A DNA stretch of 64,000 nucleotides. Source: a virus (taxonomy: Duplodnaviria; Caudoviricetes). The stretch is from the IMG/VR virus record IMGVR_UViG_3300036784_000078, positions 3,442 to 67,441 of that record. One strand, 5' to 3'. The notes beneath the pieces were generated by a model. The model saw only the letters and a program-made list of their open reading frames with translations. It was not told where the DNA came from and made no database searches. Positions 11,740-33,022 of this stretch are shown one piece after another. The position numbers and the translations under genes are program-made. Position 1 is the stretch's first letter, and every line of letters starts with the position of its first letter.

Positions 11740-12249
11740 ATCGTTGCTTATCAATTCAGACTCGATACCGGCTACCCCGGCACGTCGAACCGTGTGCATG
11801 ACGCGACGGTCACGCCCGAGGTGATCGACGCCGCAGCGCCGCCTTTGGCCTATGGCCTGGGCTGCGTGATCGATGCGACGACCGGCGGCATCCGGGCGGC
11901 GGCGACCGGCGATACCAAGATCGACGGCTTCAATCTGCGGCCCTATCCGATGCAGGGCGGCGGCCCGGCGAGCGGGATCGTCAACGACCCGCTTTACACT
12001 TCGACGCCGCCGAACGCCGGTCTCTCTGGCGGCCTGCTGCGGCGCGGCTTCATCATTGTGAAGTTGGCGGGCGGCGGTCCGGTGGTGAAGGGAGCGCCGG
12101 TCTTTGTCTCGATCGTCACGGCGACGGCCGGGCAGGTGTTCGGCACCTCCGCAGCGGCCGGTACCGGAGCGATCGCGCTCGATACCAAGTCGTCCTTCAT
12201 GGGCGCGGCCGACAGCACCGGAATCACCGAGCTCGCATTCAACCTGTAG
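11740..12249 (+). CDS. Capsid cement/decoration protein; proposed ATC start
   Basis: xAYQFRLDTGYPG N-terminus, directly upstream of the capsid gene; SD AAGGAG lies 8 nt before ATC 11740, and the GTG at 11731 is inside the SD. Confidence 0.75.
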   Translation: MVAYQFRLDTGYPGTSNRVHDATVTPEVIDAAAPPLAYGLGCVIDATTGGIRAAATGDTKIDGFNLRPYPMQGGGPASGIVNDPLYTSTPPNAGLSGGLLRRGFIIVKLAGGGPVVKGAPVFVSIVTATAGQVFGTSAAAGTGAIALDTKSSFMGAADSTGITELAFNL

Positions 12250-12311
12250 ACGGCGCGTCGCAGCCGTACGACCGAACGCGACATTCCATCACAATCTGAA
12301 AGGAGAAAGCC

Positions 12312-13331
12312 ATGCCCTTAGACGGGCCGTTCGGCTTTGCCAATGCCGGCGGCGGCGGTGGCGGACCGAACATGCCGTTCACCTATGACGGCTACACCCG
12401 AGACAGTACCGGCGCGTTCTATATTGGAGAACTAGAACGCCTCGACCAGACCATCCATGAGCCGCTGGTCAGCGTGACCTGGGGCCGTGACATCGATCTG
12501 CGGGAAGACATCACGACGGGGGATGAGGTCTCGTCCTTCACTAACAGCGCGTTCGCCATGGTCGGCGGCATCATTCCGGGCGGTATCAACTGGATCGGCA
12601 AGGATGTGAACGCGATCTCCGGTGCCCAACTGGACATCGGCAAGACGCCGCAGCCGTTGTTCCTATGGGGTGCTGAGCTTTCCTACACCATGCCGGAGCT
12701 TGCCTCGGCGATGCAGGCGGGGCGGCCGATCGACAGTCAGAAGTATGATGTTATCCGTCTGAAACATCAGATGGACATCGATCAGCTGGTCTATGCCGGC
12801 GACACAGCCGTCAACAGCTACGGCCTGCTGAACCACCCGACCGTGACGAACGTGACCAACGTGACGGGCGGCACCTGGGCGGCGGCGATTGCGGTGCCTA
12901 ACCCCGCGATCATTCTCGCACAGGTGAACGAGTTGCTGTCCTCGACCTGGGCGGCAAGCGCGTGGGCGGTGATGCCGACCGAACTGAGAGTGCCGCCGAC
13001 ACAGTTCGGCCTGCTCGTCTCGAACACCGTGTCAACGGCTGGCAACGTGTCGATCCTGCGGTTCCTGCAAGAGAACAGCCTGTGCAACACGCAGAACGGC
13101 CGACCGCTGAACATCCAGCCGTTGAAGTGGCTGAACGGACGCGGCAGCGGCTCGTCGCAGCGGATGATCGCCTATACGAAAGATCGGAACAAAGTGCGCT
13201 ATCCGATGACGCCGCTGCAAAGGACGCCGCTGGAATGGCGGAGCCTCTACAATCTGACCACGTACTGGGGTCGGCTTGGGATGATCGAATGCGTCTACCC
13301 CGAAACGATCGGATATCGCGACGGCCTGTAG
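12312..13331 (+). CDS. Major capsid protein (DUF2184 family, HK97 fold)
   Basis: GELERLDQTIHEPL, TWGRDI, WGAELSYTMPEL, YAGD..GLLNHP motifs; SD AAGGAG. Confidence 0.93.
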   Translation: MPLDGPFGFANAGGGGGGPNMPFTYDGYTRDSTGAFYIGELERLDQTIHEPLVSVTWGRDIDLREDITTGDEVSSFTNSAFAMVGGIIPGGINWIGKDVNAISGAQLDIGKTPQPLFLWGAELSYTMPELASAMQAGRPIDSQKYDVIRLKHQMDIDQLVYAGDTAVNSYGLLNHPTVTNVTNVTGGTWAAAIAVPNPAIILAQVNELLSSTWAASAWAVMPTELRVPPTQFGLLVSNTVSTAGNVSILRFLQENSLCNTQNGRPLNIQPLKWLNGRGSGSSQRMIAYTKDRNKVRYPMTPLQRTPLEWRSLYNLTTYWGRLGMIECVYPETIGYRDGL

Positions 13332-13337
13332 ACTACC

Positions 13338-13366
13338 TTGATACAATTTGATTACGGCGTTATTAT
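13338..13366 (+). promoter_or_regulatory. Leaderless-type sigma70 promoter for HNH 13373
   Basis: TTGATA-17 bp-TATTAT, 6 nt before the ATG. Confidence 0.7.
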
Positions 13367-13372
13367 AGATGG

Positions 13373-14230
13373 ATGGACAACATCCCCCAGCAGACCTTGG
13401 AGATTATACCGCGCAGCAATGCGCGCACCCGAGGTCTCACCTACCAAGGTAGCGTCTGCAAGCGCGGGCATACCGGTCTGCGGTATATAGTAGGCGGCGG
13501 TTGCGTAGCATGTATGAAGAAGGGCAAACCTCCTCGAACTGATGCTCGTCGCAAAGCCATTGAAAACGGAGAAAGACTGTACTCAACCGGCGAGCCATGC
13601 AGCAATGGCCACATGGCGATGCGCCGCACTACCAATGGCTCATGTGTGGAATGCGAGCAACTGCCAGAGGCCAAGGCAAATAACGTCGCTAAAGCCAGCC
13701 GGTATGATAGGGCTAAGAAGCAGGCCGATCCTTCGGCGTGGCGTGCTGGTAAGGCCAAGCAAGCCAGAGAGTGGCGCAAACGCTATCCAGACAAGGCTAA
13801 GGTCAAGGACAAGCTGGTCTATGGCCGAAGGGATAAGGCTAAGTTTCAAGCTTACATGGCCGAGTGGCGCGCAGCGAACCGCGCGCGCCTGACCGAATAC
13901 GACAACGCCTACAAGGCGCAGTGGCGCGCTGACAATCCCGGAGCGGCCCGTCTTAAAGGCAGGCTGGCGCGACAGCGCAGATCAGCCGCGATGCGCGAGG
14001 CTGAGGGCAGCTTCACGTTCGAGGACATCGAGCGACTAATGGAAGATCAGGCCGGCGTGTGCGCGGGCATATGCGGCCGATCCATCCGAAATCGCTACGA
14101 GATCGACCATAAGGTTGCGTTGATCCGTGGCGGCACGCACTGGCCGTCGAACCTGCAACTGCTTTGCCGGAACTGCAACGCGCGGAAGCACACTCGCACG
14201 ATGGAGGAATGGCTGTCCTCCATCCGTTAA
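13373..14230 (+). CDS. Free-standing HNH homing endonuclease
   Basis: Two GxxCxxGH repeats; C-terminal CAGIC..YEIDHKVALIRGGTHWPSNLQLLCRNCNARK. Confidence 0.9.
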   Translation: MDNIPQQTLEIIPRSNARTRGLTYQGSVCKRGHTGLRYIVGGGCVACMKKGKPPRTDARRKAIENGERLYSTGEPCSNGHMAMRRTTNGSCVECEQLPEAKANNVAKASRYDRAKKQADPSAWRAGKAKQAREWRKRYPDKAKVKDKLVYGRRDKAKFQAYMAEWRAANRARLTEYDNAYKAQWRADNPGAARLKGRLARQRRSAAMREAEGSFTFEDIERLMEDQAGVCAGICGRSIRNRYEIDHKVALIRGGTHWPSNLQLLCRNCNARKHTRTMEEWLSSIR

Positions 14231-14243
14231 GGAGGACACCCAA

Positions 14244-14465: not shown

Positions 14466-14512
14466 CCAGTATCGCAGCGCCACAACCCAACACCCAGGAA
14501 GGAAACGTCACC

Positions 14513-15169: not shown

Positions 15170-15187
15170 CGCGGAGGAAACGCCAGC

Positions 15188-15745: not shown

Positions 15746-15752
15746 GGCGCCG

Positions 15753-16943: not shown

Positions 16944-16946
16944 CGA

Positions 16947-17518: not shown

Positions 17519-19153
17519 ATGAGCGAGACGCGCACGAACGTCGTCCAGCACTACCGGACGGTCACGGCCAACAACCCGCCAGCGGCGAACGTGCTGGCGG
17601 AGGGCGAGATCGGCATCGAGATGGACGACCCGATGCGGCTGTGGATCGGGGTGCCGGCATCGCTCGATGCGACCGGCCGTAAACTGCTGTTCGATACCTC
17701 GTTGGGCGCATGGCAGGAAGCTCCGACGGACGGGCAGACATACGGGCGCGACGGTGAGGCCGCCGAATGGCTGCCGGTGCTGCCACTGACCGGCGGGACC
17801 CTGACGGGGCCGCTTCTGCTCTCGGGAGCCGCGACCAACGCGCTTGGCGCGGTGACGTTGGCGCAGATGCAGGCGGCTATCGCGGGAGGCGCCAGCCTCA
17901 CCGTTGGACCGACACCGCCGGCATCGCCGACGCAAGGCGCGATGTGGTGGGACAGCGTTGGCGGCCAACTCTACGTTTATTACAACGACGGTTCGTCATC
18001 GCAGTGGGTGGCTGCGTCGAACGCGTCGGGCATCGCCGACGCGCCTTCGGATGCCAACACCTACGGGCGGCACGCGACGGCATGGTTGCCAGTTGCGCCG
18101 ATCGCGTCGCCAGCACTGAGCGGCACACCGACAGCGCCGACCAATGGCACCGCAACTGACGCCAGCACGCAGATCGCCACCGACGCATTCGTCCAGGCTG
18201 CTGCCAAGGTTGCTGTCGCTCCGTCGCTCAACAACGTCGGCCGCAACCTGCTGCACAACGCATTGTTCAACGTGCAGCAGCGCGGCACGGGACCGTGGAC
18301 CGTCGGAGGCTATACCGCAGACCGGTGGAATTTGCAGACAACTGGTGATGCGGCGAATGCACAGATCGCCGCCCAAATCGATGCCGGCCGCACCGCTATC
18401 GGAGATGAAAGCTGCCAATCCGTCATGCAAACAGCGGTGACAGGCAATGCAGCAGCAGGTTCCTATAGCGGACTCGCGCAAGGGATCGAACACATTAGAC
18501 GGCTGTCGGGCAAAACCGTTACCGTGTCGTTTTGGGCCTATTGCGGAACAGCCTATAAAATCGGCATCAACATCCTTCAAATTTTCGGCTCTGGCGGCTC
18601 GCCCGCGCCGGCCCAGTGGGCATTGGCAACCGGCGCTGCCGTGACTCTTAACACGTCCTGGACGCGGTACAGTGCCACCATCGTGATGCCCACCGCAGCC
18701 GGTCAGACATTTGGCACGAATGGCGATGATTCCGCGTGGTTGTGGCTGTGGCTGTCATCCGGCGCGACCAACGCGCCCGTCGCCGGCAATATCGGCGTGC
18801 AAACCGGCACGGTGGACATCTGGGGTGTCCAACTTGAGGTTGGCAGCGTTGCGACGCCATTGGAAAAGCCCGACCCGCAGCAGGACCTCGCGCGATGCCA
18901 GCGGTTCTACAGTAATATCTCCGTCAGCTTAGTCGGTTATAATGGCACTGGGGCACCGATAGGCCAAACAGTATGTTGGCCGGTCACGATGCGGGTCGCC
19001 CCGTCAGTCACCTTTAGCAATCCCACCTACACCAACGCATCGGGCGTCACCAGTGGGGGCGCTTCTACCGGAGGGGCTTTGATCTATGCTGTTGTCACTG
19101 GGACCGGCGCTGCGCAATTCAGTGCGTTCGTAACCGCCTCGGCGGACCTCTGA
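17519..19153 (+). CDS. Fibre/receptor-binding-like protein 1
   Basis: LAEGEIGI, EAPxDGxxYGR repeats, LPLTGGTLTGPL, GRNLLHNALFNVQQRG ... GVQLEVG...LARCQRFY. Confidence 0.8.
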   Translation: MSETRTNVVQHYRTVTANNPPAANVLAEGEIGIEMDDPMRLWIGVPASLDATGRKLLFDTSLGAWQEAPTDGQTYGRDGEAAEWLPVLPLTGGTLTGPLLLSGAATNALGAVTLAQMQAAIAGGASLTVGPTPPASPTQGAMWWDSVGGQLYVYYNDGSSSQWVAASNASGIADAPSDANTYGRHATAWLPVAPIASPALSGTPTAPTNGTATDASTQIATDAFVQAAAKVAVAPSLNNVGRNLLHNALFNVQQRGTGPWTVGGYTADRWNLQTTGDAANAQIAAQIDAGRTAIGDESCQSVMQTAVTGNAAAGSYSGLAQGIEHIRRLSGKTVTVSFWAYCGTAYKIGINILQIFGSGGSPAPAQWALATGAAVTLNTSWTRYSATIVMPTAAGQTFGTNGDDSAWLWLWLSSGATNAPVAGNIGVQTGTVDIWGVQLEVGSVATPLEKPDPQQDLARCQRFYSNISVSLVGYNGTGAPIGQTVCWPVTMRVAPSVTFSNPTYTNASGVTSGGASTGGALIYAVVTGTGAAQFSAFVTASADL

Positions 19154-19154
19154 C

Positions 19155-20411
19155 GTGGCCCTCGATTTCCCCAACGCGCCGACAGTCGGCCAGACCTTCA
19201 CCGGTCCAAACGGTGTGGTGTGGACGTGGGATAGCGTGAAGTGGACCGCGGCCTCGACTGGTGATGCCTATCTGCCGCTGACCGGCGGCACGTTGACGGG
19301 GCCGTTGACGCTGGCGGCTGATCCCACGGTCCCGCTCGGAACGGCGACCAAGCAATATGCGGACACCAAGGCGCCGCTGGCGTCGCCGGCTCTGACCGGC
19401 ATCCCGACGGTGCCGACCGCAGCGCCCGGCACCGCGACGACGCAAGCGGCGAGCACCGCGTTCGTGGCGGCTGCGGTGGCGCCAGCGTTCAACAACGTCG
19501 GCCGCAACCTGCTGCACAATCCATTGTTCAACGTACAGCAGCGCGGCGCGGGACAGTGGTCAGCCAGCGGCTCCTATACCGCTGATCGATGGTTGCTTGA
19601 CATGGCCAGCGATACATCGTCGGCCGCCATCAGTCTCGCAAATGACGCAGCACGCGCTCAAATTGGCGATGAAGCATGCCGCTATCTGATCGGTGTCGCT
19701 GCCGCAGGCAATGCTGCTGCGGGGGCGTATACCCTGTTGATACAGAGGATCGAGTCGCTACAGCGATTGTCGGGCAAGACTGTGACTATCTCGTTTTGGG
19801 CGGGCGGCTCTGCACTGAAACTGGGTGTGTCACTAGACTCGACATTCGGCACGGGAGGTTCGCCGTCCGCGACGGTGTCAGGAAACGGACAGGCGGTTAA
19901 CGTAACCGGCACTTATACCCGTTTTTCACTTACCTTCGCCGTTCCATCGTCTGCTGGGATGACTTTCGGCACGAACGGCGATGATTTCCTGGCACTCAAT
20001 TTATGGTTCTCAAATGGCAGTAACTTTACCGTCCGCTCCGGTGGTGTGGGCGTGCAGACCGGCAGCTTTTATATATGGGGCGTGCAACTCGAAGTGGGCA
20101 CCGTCGCCACGCCGCTGGAAAAGCCCGACCCGCAGCAGGACCTCGCGCGATGCCAGCGGTTTTATCAGACCCTGAGCTCACTCATGGCGCAAGGATACAA
20201 CGTAGCAGGCGTGAACGTCTATAATGCAATACCATTGCCAGTGGTCATGCGTGCATCGCCAACCGTCACGCAACAGGCGGCCGGGAGTGCTGGCAATGCT
20301 ACGTTATTAGCCGCTTTCGGTGCGACGGATCATCTGCAAATGGCCGCTAACATCACTGGGACGGGATACGGTTACATAAGCGCTAACTATCAATTGTCGG
20401 CGGACCTGTGA
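19155..20411 (+). CDS. Fibre/receptor-binding-like protein 2 (paralogue)
   Basis: MALDFPNAPTVGQ..WTWD, same GRNLLHN...LARCQRFY module. Confidence 0.8.
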   Translation: MALDFPNAPTVGQTFTGPNGVVWTWDSVKWTAASTGDAYLPLTGGTLTGPLTLAADPTVPLGTATKQYADTKAPLASPALTGIPTVPTAAPGTATTQAASTAFVAAAVAPAFNNVGRNLLHNPLFNVQQRGAGQWSASGSYTADRWLLDMASDTSSAAISLANDAARAQIGDEACRYLIGVAAAGNAAAGAYTLLIQRIESLQRLSGKTVTISFWAGGSALKLGVSLDSTFGTGGSPSATVSGNGQAVNVTGTYTRFSLTFAVPSSAGMTFGTNGDDFLALNLWFSNGSNFTVRSGGVGVQTGSFYIWGVQLEVGTVATPLEKPDPQQDLARCQRFYQTLSSLMAQGYNVAGVNVYNAIPLPVVMRASPTVTQQAAGSAGNATLLAAFGATDHLQMAANITGTGYGYISANYQLSADL

Positions 20412-20418
20412 GGCTTGC

Positions 20419-20778
20419 ATGGCAGAACCATACCAGCTCGTGACTAACTCCGATGGCGTGCTGCGCGTCGAGGACAACGCGTATATTCCGAATGACGGCG
20501 GCAATCGCGACTGGCAGGAATATCAAGATTGGCTTGCCGCTGGGAACACGCCCGATCCGGCGCCGCCGTTGCCCGAGATTGTGCCCGTGCCAGACTCCAA
20601 CAAGCGGCTGGATAATGGCGTGACAGCGGCGACCGATGCGTATGAGGAATATACCCCCGCCGTGAACCAACGCGCTGCGGCGGGCGAGCCATCGGTCGAA
20701 GAACGCTTGCTGCGACTAGAGCAAACCATCAAGGCCATGTGCGATGGACATATGGCCGATGCCTCGCCAGGGTTCTGA
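20419..20778 (+). CDS. Fibre assembly chaperone-like protein
   Basis: YQL...IPNDGGNRDWQEYQDWLAAGNTPDPA motif after fibre genes. Confidence 0.7.
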   Translation: MAEPYQLVTNSDGVLRVEDNAYIPNDGGNRDWQEYQDWLAAGNTPDPAPPLPEIVPVPDSNKRLDNGVTAATDAYEEYTPAVNQRAAAGEPSVEERLLRLEQTIKAMCDGHMADASPGF

Positions 20779-21365
20779 TGGCGGCGAGCGCGTTCGACAT
20801 CAAAAAGACCGTCGATAATGTCGCGACGCTGGTGCAGCGGATCGCGAGCCTGACCGCATCTGACGTGCTGGCGGGCGTGCCCGCCGCCAAGGCCGGCCGA
20901 CGTGATGGCACGGTAACGAACGCGATGCTAGCGTTTGTTCATGAGTTCGGCAGCCCCGCGCATAACATCCCGGCGCGGCCGTTCATCTATCCCGGCATAA
21001 GGGCGGCAAAGCCCGCCATCGTGGCGGCCATGCGCCAGGGGGGCCAGGACATCCTGCGCGGGCAAGGGAGCGTGGACCGGACGCTGAACACGGTCGGGAT
21101 GCTGGCGCGCAATGGGATGGTGGACGCGATCACCAATCCCGACCCACCGTTCGTGCCGTTGAAGCCGGCGACGATCCGGGCGCGGTTGCGGCGGACGCAG
21201 GCGGGACGGCGGCAGCTGCGGAAGATCGGTGCCGCGGCGAAGATGATGCCAGGGATGACGGCGGACATGGCGCTGCTGATCTGGGCGGCGCAGGGGAACA
21301 TCCAGCCGTTAATCGACAGTGGGCAACTCCGTTCGAGCCTGACGTATGCCGTGGTGAAGCGCTGA
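20778..21365 (+). CDS. Neck/tail-completion protein
   Basis: AFVHEFGSP..NIPARPFI and PLIDSGQLRSSLTY motifs. Confidence 0.8.
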   Translation: MAASAFDIKKTVDNVATLVQRIASLTASDVLAGVPAAKAGRRDGTVTNAMLAFVHEFGSPAHNIPARPFIYPGIRAAKPAIVAAMRQGGQDILRGQGSVDRTLNTVGMLARNGMVDAITNPDPPFVPLKPATIRARLRRTQAGRRQLRKIGAAAKMMPGMTADMALLIWAAQGNIQPLIDSGQLRSSLTYAVVKR

Positions 21366-21481
21366 GGGGTGTTGAAGGGTGTTGCAGCCCTGTGGGGAGG
21401 GATGGAGGGGGGAGGATAGGAAACTGCCCTGGCGCCCCTCCGTAGCCCCGGCGCGGGGCGGTTTGAGCGATGGGGGGTGCG

Positions 21482-22511: not shown

Positions 22512-22776
22512 ACCCGATCAGGTCGGGCGACTAGCCTTCCGGGTCGAGGGCGAGTTCTGGAATGCCTATTACGCCCGGGCCGACAGCATGAAGGATGCGA
22601 TGCTGCTTGGCAGCCTGCATATGCGGCTGGCGTCACTGGAGCCGAGCAAACGACAGTTCATGGCTTTGATGCAGAGCGCCTTTACGGTTCTGTTCAAAGA
22701 CGCGACTGGGGCGACCTTGGCATGGCCTGAAGGGCCACAGCCAGCACCCGAGCATGAGCGGTCGCGAGACGCATGA
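22504..22776 (+). CDS. Conserved hypothetical protein
   Basis: GRLAFRVEGEFWNAYYA motif; overlaps both neighbours. Confidence 0.65.
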   Translation: MAKPDQVGRLAFRVEGEFWNAYYARADSMKDAMLLGSLHMRLASLEPSKRQFMALMQSAFTVLFKDATGATLAWPEGPQPAPEHERSRDA

Positions 22777-23450: not shown

Positions 23451-23495
23451 CCGCGGCCATCCCCACCGACAATCCCCTTCTTGGAGAGCCGAGCC

Positions 23496-25346
23496 ATGCC
23501 CGGTTTGAGCATAACCGACATCGTCAACGTGCCGATCATCATGGCGCCGACTGCGGTGCCGGTGCGCAATTTCGGGACGCTTATCCTCGCCGGGCCAAGC
23601 CCGGTGATCGATGTCAATGAGCGGCTGCGCGAATACACGACGCTGGATGGCGTGACTGCGGACTTCGGAACCGAGGCGCCGGAATACCTCGCCGCCGATG
23701 CCTTCTACGCGCAGTCGCCGCAGCCCTCGGTCCTCTATATCGGCCGGTTCGCGCAGACCGCCTCGAGCGGCGTGCTGCATGGCGGCATCCTGAGCGCGAC
23801 CCAGCAGATGACGTTGTTGCAGCAGCTGTCGCTGGTGACTGACGGGACGATGCAAATCACAATCGATGGCACGCAACGGCTGGTGGAAAAATCCTCCGCG
23901 CTGCTGACCTCGGGCGTGTTTACCGCAGCCGCGCAAGGCGCGCTCCTGACTAACTTGCAAGGCATCGCGAACGGCGCGTTTGCGCTGACGATCAGCGGCA
24001 CCGCCGTCGATACCGGGCCGATCAGCTTCGCCGCGATCACCACGCTCGAGGAAGCGGCGGAGGCGATTCAGGCGGCGGCGACCATCAGCCCGCTCGCGAC
24101 GGTGACGTGGAACGCGACGACCGGGCAGTTCGTGCTGGCGACGATCGCGACGGGCGGCACGCAGTCGGTGACCTATGCCTCGGCTCCTGCGGCGGGGACC
24201 GATATCAGCGGCATTCTGCAGCTTGCCGCCGGCAGCGGCGCGACCGTGACGCAAGGTGCCGACGGCATGAACTTCTCCGGGATCACCAACCTGAACGGAG
24301 CGGCGCAAATCCTGTCATACGCGCTGAGCGGCGGGGTCTGCGTGTGGGACGGCACGCGGTTCAACATCACCTCGGTCTCCTCCGGGCCCACCTCGACGGT
24401 GTCCTACGCGACCTCGGCCGGGGTCGGCCAGGATGTCTCGGTGATGCTGCAACTGACGTCGGGAGTCGCCTCGGTGCCGGTCGGCGGGATCGCCGCCGAA
24501 ACGGCGCTGGCCTGCGCCAACGCGCTGCGGGCGCATCCGGAGTGGTATGCGCTTGCTTTCGCGCTGACGACCGACATTGCCCAAAGCGACTATGAGGCGG
24601 TGGCATCGTTCATCGAAGGCTGCTCGCCGCCGAGCGTCTTTCTCTACACGACACAGAATTCGCAGGCGCTCGATCCGACCGTGACGACCGATCTGCCCTC
24701 GGTGCTGATGGGCGAATCGTTGCAGCGGAGCTTCGGGCAATACAGCTCGGCAAGCCCCTATGCGGCGGTCTCGCTATTCGCCCGGTTCGCGACGATCGAC
24801 TTCCAGGGCAGCAACACGATGATTACCGGCAAGTTCAAGCAAGAGCCGACGATCCTGGGCGAGGTGCTGACCGAGAACGAGGCGGCGGCGCTGAAGGGCA
24901 AGAACTGCAACGTCTTCGTCTATTACAGCGTCGGCGTCTCGATCGTGCAGGAGGCGGTGATGGCGAACGGCTACTTCATCGACGAGCGGATCGGGATGGA
25001 TGCCTGCGCCAATCAGGTGCAGACCGATCTGTTCAATGTGCTCTACCAGGCGCCGAAGGTGCCGCAGACCGATGCTGGCGTGCATCTGCTGGTGACGACG
25101 GTGGCGAACTCGTTGGTGATCTTCGTCAATAACGGGTTCATCGCGCCAGGGCAGTGGAACGGGCCGCCGATCGGGCAGTTGCAGACCGGGCAGCAGTTGC
25201 CGCTCGGCTACTACATTTTCGCGCCGTTGGTGGCGAGCCAGCCGCAGTCGATCCGTGAGACGCGCGTCGCGCCGACCCTGCAGGCGGCGATCAAGCTGGC
25301 CGGGGCGATTCACTTCGCGGAATGTATCATCAGCGTAAATAGATGA
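23496..25346 (+). CDS. Tail sheath protein (DUF3383 family)
   Basis: DIVNV...RNFG, YLAADAFYAQSPQP, TGKFKQEP, GYFIDERIG, KVPQTDAG motifs. Confidence 0.92.
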   Translation: MPGLSITDIVNVPIIMAPTAVPVRNFGTLILAGPSPVIDVNERLREYTTLDGVTADFGTEAPEYLAADAFYAQSPQPSVLYIGRFAQTASSGVLHGGILSATQQMTLLQQLSLVTDGTMQITIDGTQRLVEKSSALLTSGVFTAAAQGALLTNLQGIANGAFALTISGTAVDTGPISFAAITTLEEAAEAIQAAATISPLATVTWNATTGQFVLATIATGGTQSVTYASAPAAGTDISGILQLAAGSGATVTQGADGMNFSGITNLNGAAQILSYALSGGVCVWDGTRFNITSVSSGPTSTVSYATSAGVGQDVSVMLQLTSGVASVPVGGIAAETALACANALRAHPEWYALAFALTTDIAQSDYEAVASFIEGCSPPSVFLYTTQNSQALDPTVTTDLPSVLMGESLQRSFGQYSSASPYAAVSLFARFATIDFQGSNTMITGKFKQEPTILGEVLTENEAAALKGKNCNVFVYYSVGVSIVQEAVMANGYFIDERIGMDACANQVQTDLFNVLYQAPKVPQTDAGVHLLVTTVANSLVIFVNNGFIAPGQWNGPPIGQLQTGQQLPLGYYIFAPLVASQPQSIRETRVAPTLQAAIKLAGAIHFAECIISVNR

Positions 25347-25356
25347 GCGTAACGAC

Positions 25357-25980
25357 TTAGCGCGGCGCGCGTGCGGTGAGCCATTCGTCCATGGTCTTGT
25401 CGCCCTTCGATGTGTTGCACGGATGACAAAGGCATTGGAGGTTGTCCGGCCAGTTTGTGCCATGTCGGCTGAGCGGAATGATGTGATCGACATGGAAGCG
25501 GCGAAGGAGATCGGTGCCGCATCCGTTGCAGTGGTAGCCTTGCTGTTCGAGTAGCCGCTCGATGTCATCTTCTGTGAAAGAGCCGGGGGCGGACACGAGG
25601 CGTGCCCGGTACCGCGCTGCGATGGCCAGACGCTTGACCGGGTTGTTTTTGCACCATTGCCTTCCGGCTTCGGCGTGTGCCTCTGGGTTGCTTAAGCGCC
25701 AGCGTCTACTGAATAGCGTCGCGCGTTCCTGGTTCTCGCGGCGCCATTGGCGGAAGTATTCGCGCGAGTGGTCAAGGTTCGCCTGTCTCCATGCTTTCTG
25801 ACGCTGAGTGAATTCCTCGCGTTTCGCCTTTTGTCGAGCGAGGAAGTGATCATTGCCACACTGAGTGCATAAGCCGGAGATCGTCCATCGCGCGACGATG
25901 TGCCCGCGCAAGCATGGCTTGCCGGTGAAGTAGCGCCGGAGTCCCAGCGACTTCGCGTTCTGTCTGCTGATAATGTCCAT
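25357..25980 (-). CDS. Free-standing HNH homing endonuclease
   Basis: YFTGKPCLRGH; CNGC..FHVDHIIPLSRHGTNWPDNLQCLCHPCNTSK. Confidence 0.9.
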   Translation of the reverse strand: MDIISRQNAKSLGLRRYFTGKPCLRGHIVARWTISGLCTQCGNDHFLARQKAKREEFTQRQKAWRQANLDHSREYFRQWRRENQERATLFSRRWRLSNPEAHAEAGRQWCKNNPVKRLAIAARYRARLVSAPGSFTEDDIERLLEQQGYHCNGCGTDLLRRFHVDHIIPLSRHGTNWPDNLQCLCHPCNTSKGDKTMDEWLTARAPR

Positions 25981-25986
25981 GCGGAT

Positions 25987-26015
25987 ATTATACAGCATTG
26001 TTAAGCACTTGGCAA
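25987..26015 (-). promoter_or_regulatory. Leaderless-type sigma70 promoter for HNH 25980
   Basis: TTGCCA-17 bp-TATAAT, 6 nt before the ATG. Confidence 0.78.
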
Positions 26016-26029
26016 AAGGAGGGTGTGCT

Positions 26030-26482
26030 ATCGCAACGTATTCGTTCATGGATGTTCAGGCGTCCATTGTCGGTCCGGGAGGCTCCTTTTCATTGGGCTA
26101 CGGGTCTGGGAACTCCGAGGAAGCTATTTCCATTGCGATGACGGAAGACAAGTCAACGATGACCGTCGGCGCCGATGGGTCCGTGATGCACTCGCTGCAT
26201 GCCGGCAACAGCGGCACGGTGACGCTGCGCTATCTGAAGACCGCGCCCACTAATAACCAGCTTGCCGTGATGTATGACTTCCAGCGCGTGTCGTCGGCGC
26301 TGTGGGGACAGAATACCATCGTGATTTCCGACCCGGCGAGAGGCGACACGATCACCTGCACGCAATGCGCGTTCCAACGTTGGCCGAATGTAACCTACGC
26401 GAAAGATGGCGGCGTGCAGGAATGGGCGTTCCATGCCGGGCGGGTCGATGGGCTGCTCGGCGATGGAACTGGGGTCTCGTGA
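26030..26482 (+). CDS. Tail tube protein (DUF3277 family); proposed ATC start
   Basis: xATYSFMDVQASIVGPGG, TMTVGADG, GTVTLRYLKT motifs; SD GGAGG 7 nt before ATC 26030. Confidence 0.88.
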   Translation: MATYSFMDVQASIVGPGGSFSLGYGSGNSEEAISIAMTEDKSTMTVGADGSVMHSLHAGNSGTVTLRYLKTAPTNNQLAVMYDFQRVSSALWGQNTIVISDPARGDTITCTQCAFQRWPNVTYAKDGGVQEWAFHAGRVDGLLGDGTGVS

Positions 26483-26982
26483 TGTTGGAATTCATCGTCG
26501 GCGAGCATCACTACCGGGCGCGCAAGATGAACGCGTTCCAGCAATTCCATGTGGCGCGTCGGCTGGCGCCGGTAATCAGCGAGGTGCTGACGATGGGCGA
26601 TCTGCTGGCAAAGGCCGGCGTAGTCGCGCCGCCGGCCGATGGTGAGGAACCGCCGGCGCCGGACCTGGGCAAGTTGATCGTGCCGTTCGCTGACGCGCTG
26701 TCGAAGGTCTCCGATGGCGACTGCAATTATGTGCTGGGCGCGTGCCTGTCGATGGTGCAGCGACAGCAAGGCGGCAACGGCCAGGGGCCGGCGACCTGGG
26801 CGGACATATGGAGCGAACGGGCCAAGGCGATGATGTTCGAGGATATCAACGCGATGCCGCCGATGATGGAAATCGTGATGCACGTTCTGCAGGACAACCT
26901 GCTCGGTTTTTTCGGCGCCGCGCCGCCGGGGCCGGTAGCGGCTTTGTCGGCTCTGAGGCCTCCCCAGCGGTCCGTTATGTGA
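26482..26982 (+). CDS. Tail assembly chaperone (G)
   Basis: KMNAFQQFHVARRLAP motif; TGATG coupling to the tube gene. Confidence 0.85.
   Translation: MLEFIVGEHHYRARKMNAFQQFHVARRLAPVISEVLTMGDLLAKAGVVAPPADGEEPPAPDLGKLIVPFADALSKVSDGDCNYVLGACLSMVQRQQGGNGQGPATWADIWSERAKAMMFEDINAMPPMMEIVMHVLQDNLLGFFGAAPPGPVAALSALRPPQRSVM
26907..26913 (+). other. Programmed -1 frameshift site giving the G-T chaperone (ends at 27164)
   Basis: T TTT TTC heptamer in frame; the -1 frame encodes YLLRPSVKGMYRMESLLDGTLSLEDVMLANDYLDV. Confidence 0.75.
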
Positions 26983-27163
26983 GCCTGCCGGACGGCGAGG
27001 GCTACCTGCTGCGGCCGTCTGTCAAGGGGATGTATCGTATGGAATCCCTGCTGGACGGCACGCTCAGCCTCGAGGACGTGATGCTCGCCAACGACTATCT
27101 CGACGTGATCGATGAGAACGAGCGACGCTACCTCGTGTGGCGCCAGCAAAATCCGGGAACCTG

Positions 27164-28180
27164 ATGGCTGGCGATGTCATCGGCGTCAGCACCAGCCCGT
27201 CGGCCGGCAGGCCAGTCGCGGCGCTTGGGGAGTCGCCCTATGGGTCCGGCCCGCTGTGGACGCGCTGGTGGAACCTGACGCTGGGCGATCAGCCGGGCAA
27301 CACGGTGAACCTGTCGCAGTTCCACATCCAGTTTTCCGTGGATCAGGGCGCTTTTCAATCGCCGTGGCGGATGGAAGCGACGGTGATCAATGTGCCGCGA
27401 CAGCTCGCGTTGCAGATCACTCAACAATATACCTATGTTGCGCTTGCGGCGGGATGGCAGAAGGTACGCCGGGGCGTGCTGTTCGGCGGACAGGTCACTT
27501 ATTTCGAATATGGCAAGCTCTCGCCAACCGAGACGTTTCTGCGCATCTATGCCGCGACCGCCGATCAGGCGACCAATCAGGGCTTTATCAATCAGACCTT
27601 GGCGGCAGGCTATACCTCGAATGATGTGGTCGCAGCCGCGCTGAAAGCCCTGGCTCCCTATGGCGTGACGGCGGGCTACATCTCCCCGCTGCTGCCGAAC
27701 CAGAGCCCACGCGGGCGCACATTGGCCGGTCAGCCGAGGGACATCCTGCGCGACCTGGCACAGAGCGAGAATGCCCGCGCCTGGATTGACGGGGACAAGA
27801 GGCTGAACGTCGTGAAGGGCGGTGACACTGGCTATCAACCGGGGGTGATTCAGATCAACCAATCCAACGGCCTCGTGATGATCCCCTCGCAACAACCAGG
27901 GCAGGGGATCACCCTGCGGAGCCTGATGAACTACCAAATACTTCCGGGCATGTTCGTCCAGTTGAACCAGAACGACGTCAATCAGGTGGCAGGATCGTCT
28001 GGCGGGCCTAATGCGGATATCAGCAAGCAGCTTGATATCGGCAGCATCGTGCCGTGGAGCACCGGGATTTTTCAGGTCTACACGGTGCGCCACACGGGCG
28101 ATAGCCGTGGCAATCCTTGGTACACGGAGGTCGTTACCATGCCGACCAATCCCGAGAAAGTGCAGATGGGCGTCGGTTGA
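27164..28180 (+). CDS. Baseplate hub protein
   Basis: WTRWWNL..., LAAGW, FGGQV, PRGRTLAG, GIFQVYTVRHTGDSRGNPWYT motifs. Confidence 0.8.
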   Translation: MAGDVIGVSTSPSAGRPVAALGESPYGSGPLWTRWWNLTLGDQPGNTVNLSQFHIQFSVDQGAFQSPWRMEATVINVPRQLALQITQQYTYVALAAGWQKVRRGVLFGGQVTYFEYGKLSPTETFLRIYAATADQATNQGFINQTLAAGYTSNDVVAAALKALAPYGVTAGYISPLLPNQSPRGRTLAGQPRDILRDLAQSENARAWIDGDKRLNVVKGGDTGYQPGVIQINQSNGLVMIPSQQPGQGITLRSLMNYQILPGMFVQLNQNDVNQVAGSSGGPNADISKQLDIGSIVPWSTGIFQVYTVRHTGDSRGNPWYTEVVTMPTNPEKVQMGVG

Positions 28181-30426
28181 TGGCTGACACGCTGCAAGAG
28201 TTTCTGGTCTCGATAAAATACGCCATAGACGGCGCCAGCCAGGATCGGTTCCTGCAAGGGTTGGCGCGCGTCGCGACCGGGACGACCGGCCTGGCCGCGA
28301 CGGTGACGGGTCTGATCGGCGGTCTGGTGGCGCTGGGCACGAAGCTCGCCGAGACCGGGGAGCACTTCTATTGGATGAGCCAACGGCTCGGCGCATCGAC
28401 CGGGGACATCATTGCGGCCTCGGATGCGATGACGATGCTGGGGGTTTCGTCGTCGGCGGCGCGGCAAAGCCTGGAAAGTTTCGGCTACTTCTTGCGGAGC
28501 TATGGGCCGGCGGCGACCGGGTTCCTGCGCGCGTTCGGGGTGACGGCAACTGATCTCGACGGCCAGATGCGCCAGCTCGGGCAGACCTTTGCGCGGATGG
28601 GAGGCACCCAGCCCGGCTCCTACGGCTACGCGATGGCGCTGCGATTGGCGCAGCGTTTCGGCATTGACGAAATGACGATGCGCGGCATGGCCTCGGGGGA
28701 TTTCGCGAGGCAAGACGACGCCAGGAAGCGCTTGCAGCGCGAGGTGTGGGGCGTCGGGACCGATGCGGAGGCGAGCCAGCGCACCGGCCAATACGCGGCG
28801 CAGGCGCACGACTTCATGAACCTGATGCGGCAGTTCGGTTTCATCATGGCCGATCTGTCGCGCTACTTTGCGTCAGACTTGTTTCGCAAGCTGATGCCGT
28901 CGTTGACCGACATCATGAAGGTGCTCGAGGCGCACCTGCCGCAAATCCGTTCTCTGCTCGACGGATTGGCAACCGCCGCTGGTGTGCTGTTCACCGCGTT
29001 CGACGCGGTGGTGCAGGTGATAGGTGGCATGGTGGATGCCATCGAGAGCCTGCCGCAATGGGTGGATGGTATCGCAAAGGCGTTGCTAGTGATTGTCGGC
29101 CTGGGCTCGCCGTTTGGGCGGATGCTGCTGATGATGACGGTGCTGATGGGGTTCGTGAACGATTACATGATGTTCAAGCAATACGGCGCGAAGGCCTCGT
29201 ATTACGATTGGGGTGGCGTTGAGAACTTCCGCAAGGGCTTCGATGACACGATCAAGGGGCTGACCGGGATCAATCACGCGCTGGAATTGATCGCCGGGAC
29301 CCTGGGGACGATCGCCATGGTCTTCGGTCCCGGCGTGTTCGTACGCGGCGTGCGGGGACTGGTGCGGCGAGCGTGGCGCTTGGGGCGCCGCTTGCTGGGG
29401 GGCGGTGCCGCCGCTGGCGAGGCGGCGGCGGGTGGCGAGGCCGCGGCCGGTGCCGGTGCTGCCGAGGCAGGAGAAGGGGCGGCAGCAGCCGGTCTAGCGG
29501 CCGGACCGGTGGGATGGATCGCCCTTGCCGCCGCGGCTATCGCTGCCGGGATCACCGCCTATTTCGCGTCGGATAGTTTCCGCAAGGCAGTGAATGATTT
29601 CCTTGCCGGAGCGGCCGATTCGGCCAAGATCGCCGCCACCTCGATCTGGGAATCGATCGAGCAGATGTGGCAGGCAGCGACCTCGGGCGCTGCCGACATG
29701 GACCCGACAATGGGTTCCGTGCAGGGCGGCGCAGGGGGCTGGCTCGCCCAGAAATGGCGCGACCTGACCAGCGGGCCGGGCGGTCTGGGTCCGGTCGGGC
29801 CGGCCGCTGGTGCCGGGGCGCTGCGCGACAAGCTGATGGCGCAGTTCGGTATCTCGAAGGATATCGCCGCCGCGATGGTGTCGAACCTTCAGGCAGAGAG
29901 CGGGCTGCATTCGGATATCACCTATGGCGGCGGCGGCTATAACCCCGCGTCCTCGCGGGCCTACGGACTGGCACAGTGGACCGGATCGCGGTTGAAGGCG
30001 TTGCAGGCTTTTGCGGCGGGGCGCGGCCTCGACATTACCAAGGAAGATACGCAACTCGCCTTCATGGCGTCGGAATTGCGCAAGCCGGAATATGCCGGGG
30101 TGCTGGCTTCGATGCGCGCTGCCGCCGCGCAAGGCGCGTCGCCGCAGCAGCTCGCCGACATCTTCTTCGAGGGCTACGAGTCGGGCCACGATCCGGGGCT
30201 GGAACGCTACCATGCGGCCCATACCGGCGCGGCCAACGCGATTGCCGCGCTGCCTTCAGAACATCCGGTAGTGGCGGCGGCCGGCGGTGGCGGAGCGACG
30301 ATCCACCAGCAGACGAATATCAGCGTGACCGCGCCGAACGCGGAGGCGGCCGCGCACCGAACGGCGCAGGAACAGACACGGGTGAACCAGGATCTCGTGC
30401 GCAACGCCGGAGCAACCTACCGATGA
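28180..30426 (+). CDS. Tape measure protein with phage-tail-lysozyme-like domain
   Basis: LQEFLVSIKY N-terminus; Ala/Gly-rich helical body; SNLQAESGL...AYGLAQWTGSR...TQLAFMASEL. Confidence 0.88.
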   Translation: MADTLQEFLVSIKYAIDGASQDRFLQGLARVATGTTGLAATVTGLIGGLVALGTKLAETGEHFYWMSQRLGASTGDIIAASDAMTMLGVSSSAARQSLESFGYFLRSYGPAATGFLRAFGVTATDLDGQMRQLGQTFARMGGTQPGSYGYAMALRLAQRFGIDEMTMRGMASGDFARQDDARKRLQREVWGVGTDAEASQRTGQYAAQAHDFMNLMRQFGFIMADLSRYFASDLFRKLMPSLTDIMKVLEAHLPQIRSLLDGLATAAGVLFTAFDAVVQVIGGMVDAIESLPQWVDGIAKALLVIVGLGSPFGRMLLMMTVLMGFVNDYMMFKQYGAKASYYDWGGVENFRKGFDDTIKGLTGINHALELIAGTLGTIAMVFGPGVFVRGVRGLVRRAWRLGRRLLGGGAAAGEAAAGGEAAAGAGAAEAGEGAAAAGLAAGPVGWIALAAAAIAAGITAYFASDSFRKAVNDFLAGAADSAKIAATSIWESIEQMWQAATSGAADMDPTMGSVQGGAGGWLAQKWRDLTSGPGGLGPVGPAAGAGALRDKLMAQFGISKDIAAAMVSNLQAESGLHSDITYGGGGYNPASSRAYGLAQWTGSRLKALQAFAAGRGLDITKEDTQLAFMASELRKPEYAGVLASMRAAAAQGASPQQLADIFFEGYESGHDPGLERYHAAHTGAANAIAALPSEHPVVAAAGGGGATIHQQTNISVTAPNAEAAAHRTAQEQTRVNQDLVRNAGATYR

Positions 30427-31157
30427 GCGGCGCGCTGGCTGCGTTGGCGACGCTGGGCACGGTGGTAAGCCCGCTGCAGGGCCAGCTAGCAAGCGTGCTC
30501 GGCACTGGCTCGCCGGTCGGGGCGCTGTTCGGCCAGCCGCGATCGATCGGCACGATCATTCCCGACGTTACGATCGAAGAAAGCTTCTCCGACCGGGTGC
30601 AAGTGACACAGCACCCGCGGGCGTCGGGCACGCCGATGAACGATCATGTGTACCGGCAGCCGCGGACTGTGGTGATGCGCTGCGGCTGGAGCAATTCCAA
30701 CGTGGTCGGCTCGGTGGTGAGCGGGGCGATTTCGGGCGGCCTGTCCGGCGCGCTCTCGGGACTGACGTCGAGCTTTACCGAGACGCGGGTGATCGATGTC
30801 TATCAGCAGCTTCTCGCCCTGCAATTCGATCCATCGAACACGACCGCGCCGGTGACACCGTTCAACGTGCAAGCCGGCAAACGGACTTACCAGAACATGG
30901 TGATTGCCGAGATCGGCGTGCGCAACGACTCGAAGACGGAATACGCGCTGATCGCGGACATCCATCTGCAAGAGGTGATCACGGTCTCGGCGACGGTGAC
31001 GCCGGCGCCGTCCTCGAACGAACAGTCGATGCCGCAGAAGACCGCCGCGACCGCCAATGGCGGCGCCCAGCAACCAACGCCGCAATCTTTCTTCAGGAGC
31101 ATTGGCGGACCGCAGACGTTGATCGGCGCTCCGGCAGCGCCGCCGTCCGTGCCATGA
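30423..31157 (+). CDS. Dit-like baseplate/tail-tube initiator
   Basis: DVTIEESFSD.VQVTQHP..SG..NDH..RQP motif. Confidence 0.8.
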   Translation: MSGALAALATLGTVVSPLQGQLASVLGTGSPVGALFGQPRSIGTIIPDVTIEESFSDRVQVTQHPRASGTPMNDHVYRQPRTVVMRCGWSNSNVVGSVVSGAISGGLSGALSGLTSSFTETRVIDVYQQLLALQFDPSNTTAPVTPFNVQAGKRTYQNMVIAEIGVRNDSKTEYALIADIHLQEVITVSATVTPAPSSNEQSMPQKTAATANGGAQQPTPQSFFRSIGGPQTLIGAPAAPPSVP

Positions 31158-31492
31158 GCGGGAGCAGTGCGCCGACGGTCTTCGAAATCCCGCTGGCGGC
31201 CCAGCCGATGACGTTCACCATCCCGCTCGGGGGTGTGACCTATGAGCTGACGATGGTCTATCGGGACGCGACCGAGGGCGGATGGAGCCTCGACATCGAC
31301 GATGGGTATGGCAATCCAATTCTGTGCGGTGTGCCGCTGGTGACCGGCGCCGATCTGCTGGCGCAATACGCCTATCTCGGTATCGGTGGGCAGTTGTGGG
31401 TGCGCAGCGATGGCGAGCCCGATGCCGTGCCGACATTCGCCAATCTCGGTCAGGTGCCGGGCGGTCACCTCTACTGGATACCGAACCCATGA
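31154..31492 (+). CDS. Baseplate plug protein (DUF6983-like)
   Basis: FEIPL, WSLDI, CGVPLVTGADLLAQYAYLGIG motifs. Confidence 0.82.
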   Translation: MSGSSAPTVFEIPLAAQPMTFTIPLGGVTYELTMVYRDATEGGWSLDIDDGYGNPILCGVPLVTGADLLAQYAYLGIGGQLWVRSDGEPDAVPTFANLGQVPGGHLYWIPNP

Positions 31493-32217
31493 ACGACCCT
31501 GCGATTGGCCCGCTGGACCCGCGCCAGCGATCGACCGATGACCTTGAGGCGCTGCAAACCGCGATGGATGGGCGGCAGACGCAGTTGCACACGATGATGC
31601 CAGGACAAATCGTGAGCTATAATGCCGCGACGGTGACGGCCGTGGTGCAGCCCGCGCTACAGGTGTTCCGCACGCTGGCTGACGGCTCGCGTCAGCCGAC
31701 GACGCTGGCGCCGATCCATGATGTGCCGGTGCATTTCCCAGGCGGCGGCGGTCATATCCTGACCTTTCCGGTCGCGGGCGGCGATGACTGCATGCTGGTC
31801 TTCGCCGAGCGCAGCATCGACAATTGGTACCAGCATGGCGGCGTGCAGCAACCGTCGGACTGGCGGATGCACGATATCACCGACGCGTTCGCTCTGGTGG
31901 GAGTGCGGAGCCAGCCGCACGTGCCGAATGGGGTGTCATCGAGCACCGTGCAGTTGCGGAGCGATGACGGCAAGACAGTCATTCAGGTGGACGGGCCAAA
32001 TCAGGCGATCACGCTGTCGGCGGCCAATACCGCCGCGGTGGTATTTCTCAATCCGCAGGGGACGATTGTCGGCGCCCCTGGCGGCAACCTCGGTGTGCTG
32101 GGGGCGCAGCCGATCCCGCGCGGGGTGATTACCGGAGCGAAGCAGAACAACGCGGCGCTGACCAGCCTGATCCACTTCCTGGCGCAGCGCGGAGACATCA
32201 CGGACCAGACGACGTAG
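31489..32217 (+). CDS. Baseplate central spike (Gp138/GpV-like)
   Basis: HTMMPGQIVSY, DVPVHFPGGG, GDDCMLVFAERSIDNW, RMHDITDAF motifs. Confidence 0.88.
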   Translation: MNDPAIGPLDPRQRSTDDLEALQTAMDGRQTQLHTMMPGQIVSYNAATVTAVVQPALQVFRTLADGSRQPTTLAPIHDVPVHFPGGGGHILTFPVAGGDDCMLVFAERSIDNWYQHGGVQQPSDWRMHDITDAFALVGVRSQPHVPNGVSSSTVQLRSDDGKTVIQVDGPNQAITLSAANTAAVVFLNPQGTIVGAPGGNLGVLGAQPIPRGVITGAKQNNAALTSLIHFLAQRGDITDQTT

Positions 32218-32243
32218 ACCGAAGGGGCTGCGTGATGTATGTT
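32215..32243 (+). promoter_or_regulatory. Probable leaderless-type promoter for the GIY-YIG gene
   Basis: TAGACC-17 bp-TATGTT, 5 nt before the ATG. Confidence 0.5.
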
Positions 32244-32248
32244 ATGGG

Positions 32249-33022
32249 ATGCAGAGCGATTATTATGTCTATGTATTGTTCGACCGGCAAGGGCTGCCTT
32301 ATTACGTAGGCAAAGGTCGCGGGCATAGGCTGTCGAGACATCCCGATGTTCCCAAAGTCAAGGTTCGCGAAGGTCTCTCGAATGAGGCGGCGCTGAAAAT
32401 CGAACGAGCATTCATCTTCGCGCTTGGTCGCAGGCCGGACGGTCTCCTGATCAACAAGAACTACGGCGGTGCTGGGTTCGTGGACTGGTCGGCCGATCAT
32501 CGAGAGATGATGCGTCAGAGAATGCTAGGCAAGCAGTATGCTCTCGGTTATCGGCACACCCCGGTGACTATTGAGAAAATCCGCGCGGAGAGCGCCGGAA
32601 GGAAATACCCGACCCGCAAACCAGCCAAGTGGTCTCATCCGATGTCCGAGCAACAACGCGCCGCGATGAGCAAACGAGAGACTGGCAGAAAGCGGTCTGC
32701 GGAAGATCGAGCGAAGATCAGTGCCGGGATGATAGGTCATGAGGTTTTGCCGGAGACTCGAGCGAAGATCGGGAAAGCTCACGCTGGGAAGAAGCTTTCG
32801 ACAACAACGATCGCAAAGCTGCGAAAGGTTTCTGGCGACAATACAAGGGGCAAAGTCTGGATCACTGACGGATCGGTTGACCGGCGTGTTGCGCCTGATG
32901 AGGTGATATCAGAAGGGTGGCGACGCGGTCGGACGACAAAGCCGTCATCCGAAAGGATGAGCGAGGTCGCCACCGCCATGTGGGCAAGAAGGAGGGCCGC
33001 CCAATTCGTTACCGAAAGCTAG
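32249..33022 (+). CDS. GIY-YIG-like homing endonuclease with NUMOD3/NUMOD1-like repeats
   Basis: YYVYVLFD..YYVGKGRGHR; E..FI..G; basic SxExRxKISxxxxG repeats; GKVWITDG. Confidence 0.85.
   Translation: MQSDYYVYVLFDRQGLPYYVGKGRGHRLSRHPDVPKVKVREGLSNEAALKIERAFIFALGRRPDGLLINKNYGGAGFVDWSADHREMMRQRMLGKQYALGYRHTPVTIEKIRAESAGRKYPTRKPAKWSHPMSEQQRAAMSKRETGRKRSAEDRAKISAGMIGHEVLPETRAKIGKAHAGKKLSTTTIAKLRKVSGDNTRGKVWITDGSVDRRVAPDEVISEGWRRGRTTKPSSERMSEVATAMWARRRAAQFVTES

Follow-up and report, generated by a model that had tools for sequence, protein, structure and literature searches.

In the uncultured soil phage represented by IMG/VR record IMGVR_UViG_3300036784_000078, ATC, ATC and ATT are most likely the genuine near-cognate initiation codons of three essential virion genes, which encode a cement protein, the tail tube protein and a baseplate wedge protein, respectively. 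These ATH codons (ATA, ATC or ATT) are placed at the start position of their protein families behind Shine-Dalgarno (SD) sequences that rank in the top decile of the genome, and the observation is real and beyond chance. As a whole, it is probably best explained by near-cognate starts tied to the insertion of mobile elements at initiation regions. The stretch analysed here (the window) covers 64 kb of the 67,441-bp record, which has direct terminal repeats and a completeness rating of 100%. Its G+C content is 64%. The sole public run containing the phage is a soil metagenome that is probably the source of the record, and the cultured phages nearest to this one are myophages that infect Klebsiella, Burkholderia and others (tube protein identity of about 58%).

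The cement or minor capsid protein gene (11740..12249, plus strand; PF22758 and PF23982 at 63.6 and 50.4 bits, cutoff 27) probably starts at ATC 11740, located 8 nt downstream of an AAGGAG motif (11726..11731) with a pairing energy with the anti-SD of -8.0 kcal/mol. The tail tube gene (26030..26482, plus strand) starts at ATC 26030, and its SD (AAGGAGG, 26016..26022, -12.1 kcal/mol) ends with a GGAGG at 26018-22 that is followed by a 7-nt spacer. The tube protein matches PF11681 (DUF3277, KPP10_Orf10 family) over its full length (193 bits, cutoff 25, profile positions 1-144 of 144), and the profile alignment places ATC 26030 at position 1. Finally, the baseplate wedge gene (phrog_120; 33004..33540, plus strand) starts at ATT 33004, 8 nt downstream of an AAGGAGG motif (32989..32995, -12.2 kcal/mol) embedded in an endonuclease open reading frame (ORF). 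All three sites read exactly as an earlier, sequence-only reading of this DNA had described them, including their location at the family start position. In the sets of 16 cement and 29 wedge relatives used for start alignment, the start codons align to the ATH codon of the window or 1-3 codons upstream of it.

Such arrangements are rare in this genome. SD energies of the window genes average -5.4 kcal/mol and reach -10 or below in just 9% of them. A census of strong SDs over the whole window, in which an ATH codon at 7-9 nt had to open an ORF of at least 150 codons, returned these three sites only. The remaining AAGGAG-type sites on the same strand lie upstream of ATG gene starts at 9608, 12312, 14244 and 35316. 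Likewise, a census of start codons over the approximately 97 window genes of a crude gene model revealed no additional convincing ATH start.

The sequence-only reading also stated that no ATG, GTG or TTG is well placed at these loci. This is true for placement relative to the SD, as no upstream canonical codon is served by a strong SD at any of the three sites, but in-frame canonical codons exist upstream at all three. In the cement gene, GTG 11731 lies at -3 codons and overlaps the SD, with an energy of -3.6 kcal/mol. Upstream of the tube start are TTG 26009 (-7 codons), ATG 25979 (-17) and ATG 25973 (-19), and the alternatives TTG 26009 and ATG 25979 lack an SD (-0.6 and +0.6 kcal/mol). For the wedge gene, GTG 32980 (-8 codons) and GTG 32917 (-29 codons) have energies of -6.7 and -6.9 kcal/mol.

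Read support, which had been proposed as a check, was consulted for the tube and wedge genes. A 55-kb Logan contig, produced by an independent assembler from the probable source run at a depth of 29, is identical to the window over 20132-33099, without a single difference. Therefore, ATC 26030 and ATT 33004 are not assembly errors, and sequencing error at these two positions was likewise ruled out. The cement site at 11740 lies outside the compared stretch, which began at 13100. In one low-depth Logan contig (3.8 of 39), an extra A follows position 22230 of the window, either a minority variant or an error. Judging from sequence comparisons, the ATH codon is well supported as a real initiation codon in the tube gene, fairly well supported in the wedge gene, and moderately supported in the cement gene.

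Dereplication of the tube genes from 80 viral contigs (tube protein identity of 50-84%), together with that of the window, left 49 distinct sequences. At the family start position, 31 of them have ATG, 9 GTG, 3 TTG, 5 ATC and 1 ATT. The six ATH sequences require five changes on the maximum-likelihood tree, at least four of which are forced by well-supported branches. In every ATH relative, the frame is closed upstream by a stop codon at a distance of 4-31 codons, and this interval contains no ATG, GTG or TTG. Codons 2-6 still encode xTYSF in spite of synonymous changes, among them AGC versus TCN for the serine. Therefore, these codons are translated and the ATH codon is the sole possible start in these relatives. 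Pattern scans revealed extra ATA and ATT alleles in viral contigs and four further alleles in metagenome contigs, bringing homologous ATH tube loci devoid of a canonical alternative to 10 or more. Applied to species-representative genomes, the ATH tube pattern gave 79 matches including one true tube gene, in a metagenome-assembled genome of Sutterella; among the matches listed for canonical starts, at least 104 tube genes start with ATG and at least 7 with GTG.

An out-of-frame GTG located at -5 to -3 was observed in 6 of 17 tube initiation regions with a weak start, compared to 1 of 14 with a GTG start and 0 of 69 with an ATG start. It occurs in the window at 26025-26027 and in L002, L004, L032, L169 and L390 (relatives are designated by L numbers), and these six tube regions all belong to one clade. 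The same feature precedes the cement ATC (11735-11737), and the cement leader of the window, GGAGTGCGTGTCATC, differs by one base from the tube leader of L032. A start at the out-of-frame GTG located 5 nt upstream, with a subsequent frameshift, was ruled out, as the frames bar re-pairing and the SD spacing would be 2-3 nt.

Conservation of ATH codons in relatives differed between the three genes: they recur in the tube gene (6 of 49 sequences, with at least four origins), occur in a single relative for the wedge gene, and in none for the cement gene. At the aligned codon, the 16 cement homologues have ATG in 9 cases and GTG in 3, the other 4 having an ATG 1-3 codons upstream. A dedicated pattern scan for cement genes starting with ATH gave chance matches only, and a single-protein scan of viral contigs found no close relatives of the cement protein. 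The 29 wedge homologues have ATG (27), GTG (1) or TTG (1) at the aligned codon. A later pattern scan of the wedge gene uncovered one additional ATT allele in contig L374, whose protein is 58% identical to the wedge protein of the window. Its initiation region is the same as that of the window (AGGAGGGC, 6 nt, ATT CG), and a stop codon lies 29 codons upstream with no canonical codon between the stop and the ATT. L374 and L032, which has an ATC tube start, come from one sample (3300047160) and appear to abut within the tape-measure gene; therefore, a second phage probably combines an ATC tube start with an ATT wedge start.

Other wedge or wedge-like genes have unusual 5' ends. In L375, L380 and L381, the wedge gene begins with ATG-ACC-ATC-CGG-TAT, in which initiation has shifted to an ATG two codons upstream and the ancestral Met position is occupied by an ATC encoding Ile, an arrangement that shows an escape route from an ATH start. 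In L377-L379, a 228-aa ORF begins with IRYRRFDLDGD at an ATT immediately after a TGA stop codon, which reads GGA in L373, where the frame is open upstream. This ORF may represent another ATH start in a distant wedge-like gene; blastp found no similarity between it and the wedge protein of the window at 1e-3. Four complete relatives scanned for a strong SD followed by ATH yielded at most one candidate, an ATC at approximately 55480 (minus strand) of G009 (IMGVR_UViG_3300036846_000489) that follows AGGAGA and 9 nt and opens 229 codons; its frame is closed by a stop located 8 codons upstream, and the interval lacks canonical codons. A tblastn comparison of N-termini across the same four genomes was noisy because alignments ran into upstream non-coding sequence, and the sheath gene that it flagged has a normal ATG in all five genomes.

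The ATT allele of L374 has a peculiar structure. At 4486-4560, the 5' end of the wedge gene is duplicated: the old copy, ATG followed by RYRRLDPN, is separated by 14 nt containing a strong SD from the ATT copy, which encodes the same nine residues with six synonymous differences besides the start codon. The ORF initiated at the old ATG passes through the SD in a frame other than that of the wedge gene and terminates 19 nt inside this gene; its tail is RRARQFGIAA. In the window, the endonuclease ORF terminates at the equivalent location, with the tail RRRAAQFVTES. The duplicated and recoded start, together with the similar ORF tails, makes the ATT-type initiation region resemble the 3' end of a cassette whose insertion rebuilt the 5' end of the gene. 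L374 would then have arisen from the cassette-inserted state by deletion or, alternatively, represent its precursor. No such 5' duplication was found at any other wedge or tube locus examined. Furthermore, the GAC CCG AAC codons of the two copies are identical and lie 41 nt apart, such that as take-off and landing sites for a ribosomal hop they would yield the same protein as initiation at the ATT. A hydrophobic 25-codon ORF is coupled by ATGA to the first wedge copy.

In the window, each of the three genes is preceded by approximately 700-790 nt of sequence with lower G+C content (0.61, 0.58 and 0.56 for cement, tube and wedge versus 0.64) that is mostly absent in relatives. The tail sheath gene (23496..25346, plus strand), which has a normal ATG start, is separated from the tube gene by 683 nt in the window, compared to 12-90 nt in about half of the relatives (24 loci). 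This gap contains a predicted free-standing HNH homing endonuclease gene (25357..25980, minus strand; PF01844 at 40 bits, cutoff 21.4; phrog_1035, 1.5e-29) that diverges from the tube gene. Its start codon, ATG 25980, aligns with Met-1 of the homologues in L032 and L072 and is separated from the tube ATC by a 49-nt spacer. Gene 44 and the wedge gene are adjacent in most relatives and 786 nt apart in the window, where a probable free-standing GIY-YIG homing endonuclease gene with a NUMOD3 domain (32249..33022, plus strand) intervenes. Its last codons contain the SD and ATT of the wedge gene, and its TAG stop codon (33020-22) lies 16 nt past the ATT. The product has a NUMOD3 match (PF07460, 22.9 bits, cutoff 20.4), a phrog_314 match (6e-11) and the N-terminal motif YVYVL...YYVGKG; a Pfam match to GIY-YIG was obtained for the paralog at 36709-37362 only, at 26.0 bits, just under the cutoff of 27. 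A single-protein scan of viral contigs found no close relatives of the GIY-YIG enzyme of the window.

The insertion of approximately 710 nt upstream of the cement gene (11026..11739) contains two small minus-strand ORFs with hydrophobic stretches, from ATG 11633 to 11427 (68 aa) and from ATG 11192 to 11055 (45 aa). They have no family match and look like membrane proteins; this segment may be a moron encoding, for example, an exclusion or membrane protein pair. The three regions 11026-11760, 25347-26050 and 32218-33025 share no repeat or mobile element detectable by DNA or six-frame similarity. A 10-nt copy of cement codons 2-4, preceded by AT, occurs at 11583 and was not retained as evidence, as such 10-mer repeats are found at 14% of random positions.

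The window encodes three other proteins of these types: a second HNH homing endonuclease (13373..14230, plus strand), which is 33% identical to its paralog and followed by a gene with a normal ATG at 14244; a second GIY-YIG and NUMOD3 protein (36709..37362, minus strand), 29% identical to its paralog and also neighbouring a gene with a normal ATG; and a third phrog_1035-type endonuclease-like ORF (1176..1745, minus strand). Five homing endonuclease-type genes, three phrog_1035/HNH and two GIY-YIG plus NUMOD3, are thus found in or beside the structural module of a 67-kb phage. Elsewhere in the window, the adjacent genes 17519-19153 and 19155-20411 share 81-84% identical DNA (18208-18909 versus 19469-20164) with an offset of approximately 1,255 nt and look like tail-fibre-like paralogs that recently duplicated or recombine.

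The association between endonuclease and start codon extends to relatives. The gap between sheath and tube is an insertion hot spot, as about half of the relatives (L002-L081) carry 200 to more than 1,400 nt at this location. Most of the inserted ORFs have no PHROG match, and other endonucleases could not be called among them. A phrog_1035 HNH gene diverging from the tube gene and located 41-51 nt from its start was found in the window, in L032 (47% identical) and in L072, and the tube start is ATC in all three. A decayed HNH copy lies approximately 30 nt from the tube start of L008, which is TTG. None of about 150 other tube loci has a phrog_1035 HNH gene beside the tube gene; hence, this family flanks weak-start tube alleles only. 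When HNH-linked initiation regions were aligned with the others, the third base of the start codon was the most discriminating column, with a C in 4 of 5 HNH-linked alleles compared to 1 of 33 others. The five include L079, counted as a close relative of L072, although its own short flank has no HNH match. No homologue of the window endonucleases was found at the wedge or cement loci of relatives.

Together, these observations suggest the following scenario. Comparison with relatives indicates that the cement, tube and wedge genes start at ATC, ATC and ATT codons decoded by the initiator tRNA, and that initiation is workable owing to ribosome-binding sites in the strongest tenth of the genome. 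The ATH alleles appear to be neither a phage-wide code nor a tuned throttle. They are located where lineage-specific insertions end on the right-hand side, a context that the sequence-only reading had not noticed and that offers a different origin for these starts. Mobile DNA that inserted at or within the initiation region may have replaced this region or re-created it as a strong SD and a near-cognate start. The ATH codon could then be kept either because it travels with the endonuclease by co-conversion, or because the resident allele is a poor substrate or a non-cleavable operator for the endonuclease, the strong SD offsetting the lost initiation efficiency. A more specific version, in which homing endonucleases both create and lock in the ATH starts, is conceivable though doubtful. 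The SD, the ATG and the first codons would constitute the target or operator of the enzyme and the ATH codon would confer immunity. Revertants would be cut and converted back, the phage paying with a strengthened SD, and ATH alleles devoid of an endonuclease would either be resistant or represent what lost elements left behind, a reading suggested by L374.

The strength of the SD varies with that of the start codon. In the tube set, mean pairing energies are -6.95 kcal/mol for ATG (n=21), -9.2 for GTG (n=8), -11.0 for TTG (n=3) and -10.4 for ATH (n=6), and ATH differs from ATG with p = 5e-4 in a Mann-Whitney test that ignores relatedness. The two ATT wedge alleles are at -12.2 (window) and -10.8 kcal/mol (L374), compared to a mean of -5.3 for wedge relatives. 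Such a trade-off is expected if total initiation strength is selected and ATH codons are functional, and looks like a compensation that keeps output up rather than a throttle. It therefore argues against a designed weak gate, and the proposal of the sequence-only reading that the weak starts form an adaptive translational gate tying virion protein synthesis to the level of initiation factor 3 (IF3) or the state of the ribosome gained no support. Non-canonical starts are discriminated against by IF3 and inhibited when it is in excess (PMC2268962), mRNAs starting with AUU respond in vitro to temperature, nutrients and ppGpp (PMC5499595), and the share of GTG, TTG and ATH starts is unusually high in the tube gene of this clade. 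Nevertheless, no regulator was identified, the pattern is conserved neither in the cement gene (0/16) nor in the wedge gene (0/29, with L374 found later), the sheath and other partner genes retain ATG, and the three genes share nothing but insertion junctions. Together with SDs that strengthen as the start weakens, thereby maintaining output, these observations make such a gate very unlikely.

Translation could instead begin at the upstream canonical codons (GTG 11731; TTG 26009 or ATG 25979; GTG 32980 or GTG 32917), the proteins bearing short N-terminal extensions and the ATH codon being an ordinary Ile codon at the ancestral Met position. Such codons are present before all three sites, cement relatives tolerate 1-3 additional N-terminal residues, the L375/L380/L381 lineage made precisely this kind of move while keeping ATC as Ile, and the two wedge GTG codons have average SD energies. 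However, the spacing of the strong SDs suits the ATH codons and not the upstream ones, which in the tube gene lack an SD and in the cement gene overlap it, and the upstream frame of the tube gene is antisense to the start of the HNH gene. Moreover, in homologous ATH alleles (L032, L052, L072, L079, L081, L374 and others), the frame is closed by an upstream stop before any canonical codon is reached. We consequently regard upstream initiation as quite unlikely overall; among the three genes, it is most plausible for cement. Another alternative, which we find unlikely, is that the soil host discriminates poorly against AUH codons, allowing ATG to drift neutrally to ATH behind a strong SD, in which case the adjacency to endonucleases would be coincidental. 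Several lineages have ATH alleles without an endonuclease, which have been retained despite extensive synonymous divergence (L166 versus L389), one soil sample seems to contain a second phage with both an ATC tube (L032) and an ATT wedge (L374), and ATH tube starts are rare in species-representative genomes (one true match) and common in this soil clade. Host tolerance does not readily account for ATH codons being confined to 3 of the approximately 97 window genes, all virion genes at insertion junctions, for the single candidate at most in four complete relatives, or for an HNH adjacency limited to weak-start alleles, and on its own it leaves the L374 duplication unexplained. Finally, the ATH codons could be sequencing or assembly errors, or knock-outs in a dead phage, as the window comes from a single metagenome-assembled genome present in one run, probably its own source, and site 11740 falls outside the independent-assembly check. 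This is extremely unlikely given that, for the tube and wedge sites, a second assembler returned the same sequence at depth 29, that direct terminal repeats are present in the record, which is rated complete, that ATH is found at the same codon in many independent contigs, and that three random errors would hardly all hit the third position of a start codon preceded by one of the best SDs.

Several observations weigh against a link between insertions and near-cognate starts. Many ATH tube alleles have no nearby endonuclease (L052, L081, L150, L166/L387/L389, L169, L335 and L390), nor has the ATT wedge allele of L374, and several ATH tube alleles have a sheath-tube gap of just 13-86 nt. The initiation region of L169, which has ATT and no endonuclease, is nearly base-for-base the same as that of L032. 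Within the window, the insertion upstream of the cement gene contains no recognisable endonuclease, and the three other endonuclease genes (13373-14230, 36709-37362 and 1176-1745) neighbour genes with a normal ATG. The association is based on 4-5 lineages that are incompletely independent, and the cause could run either way. As for the starts themselves, a canonical in-frame codon upstream of every ATH site in the window makes short N-terminal extensions possible. The cement gene is the most exposed, with a GTG at -3 codons, no ATH relatives and a contig check that did not include 11740. Furthermore, AUA, AUC and AUU reached 1-2% of AUG in Escherichia coli reporters (bioRxiv 10.1101/063800), which fits high-copy proteins poorly unless the host or the context differs. 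The effect of context can be large, as AUA was about equal to AUG in vitro in an optimised initiation region (PMC5499595). On balance, we still favor near-cognate starts tied to insertions.

Near-cognate initiation is known from infC and pcnB of E. coli, which have AUU start codons subject to discrimination by IF3. As in these two genes, the ATH codons of the window are at the initiator Met position behind an SD, would be read as starts, and are missed by gene finders restricted to ATG, GTG and TTG. Unlike infC and pcnB, the genes of the window encode high-copy virion proteins without autoregulatory logic and combine a weak codon with an exceptionally strong SD; moreover, ATH codons of the window type recur in one gene family and adjoin mobile endonuclease genes. 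T4 gene 26 is said to have an internal AUU start, on which our literature search gave nothing. The same held for ATH starts beside homing endonucleases, for which no literature was found.

Free-standing homing endonucleases spread with co-conversion of their flanks and target conserved sequences of essential genes (PMC2988022). Like the seg (GIY-YIG) and mob (HNH) genes of T4-like phages, which undergo intronless homing (PMC2988022), the endonuclease ORFs of the window lie between conserved structural genes, are absent at the same place in relatives and have several paralogs per genome. The window endonucleases are predicted from sequence and, as for seg and mob, co-transfer of their flanks is expected. 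A link between insertion and near-cognate starts is not described in this homing endonuclease review (PMC2988022). In the case of I-TevI, autorepression is exerted through an operator that mimics the homing site and is not cleaved (PMC2988022). Similarly, the tube initiation region of the window lies directly upstream of the divergent HNH ORF, in the position of an operator or promoter, although the HNH enzyme belongs to another family than I-TevI and resides in an intron-free setting. By analogy, a homing site-like sequence that must stay uncut is a possible reason for the change from ATG to ATC in the tube gene.

For the annotation of uncultured phages, these observations imply that gene callers accepting ATG, GTG and TTG only will truncate, extend or miss such virion genes. 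They also provide a clean comparative case in which ATA, ATC and ATT start high-copy structural proteins when paired with strong SDs, and in which SD strength and start-codon strength trade off inside one gene family. A more interesting lead than a translational gate is that homing endonuclease insertions appear to be tied to replaced initiation regions of essential virion genes. If this link is causal, it would represent a new way for selfish elements to reshape the expression signals of essential phage genes, and would open the target sites of two uncharacterised endonucleases to experimental testing.

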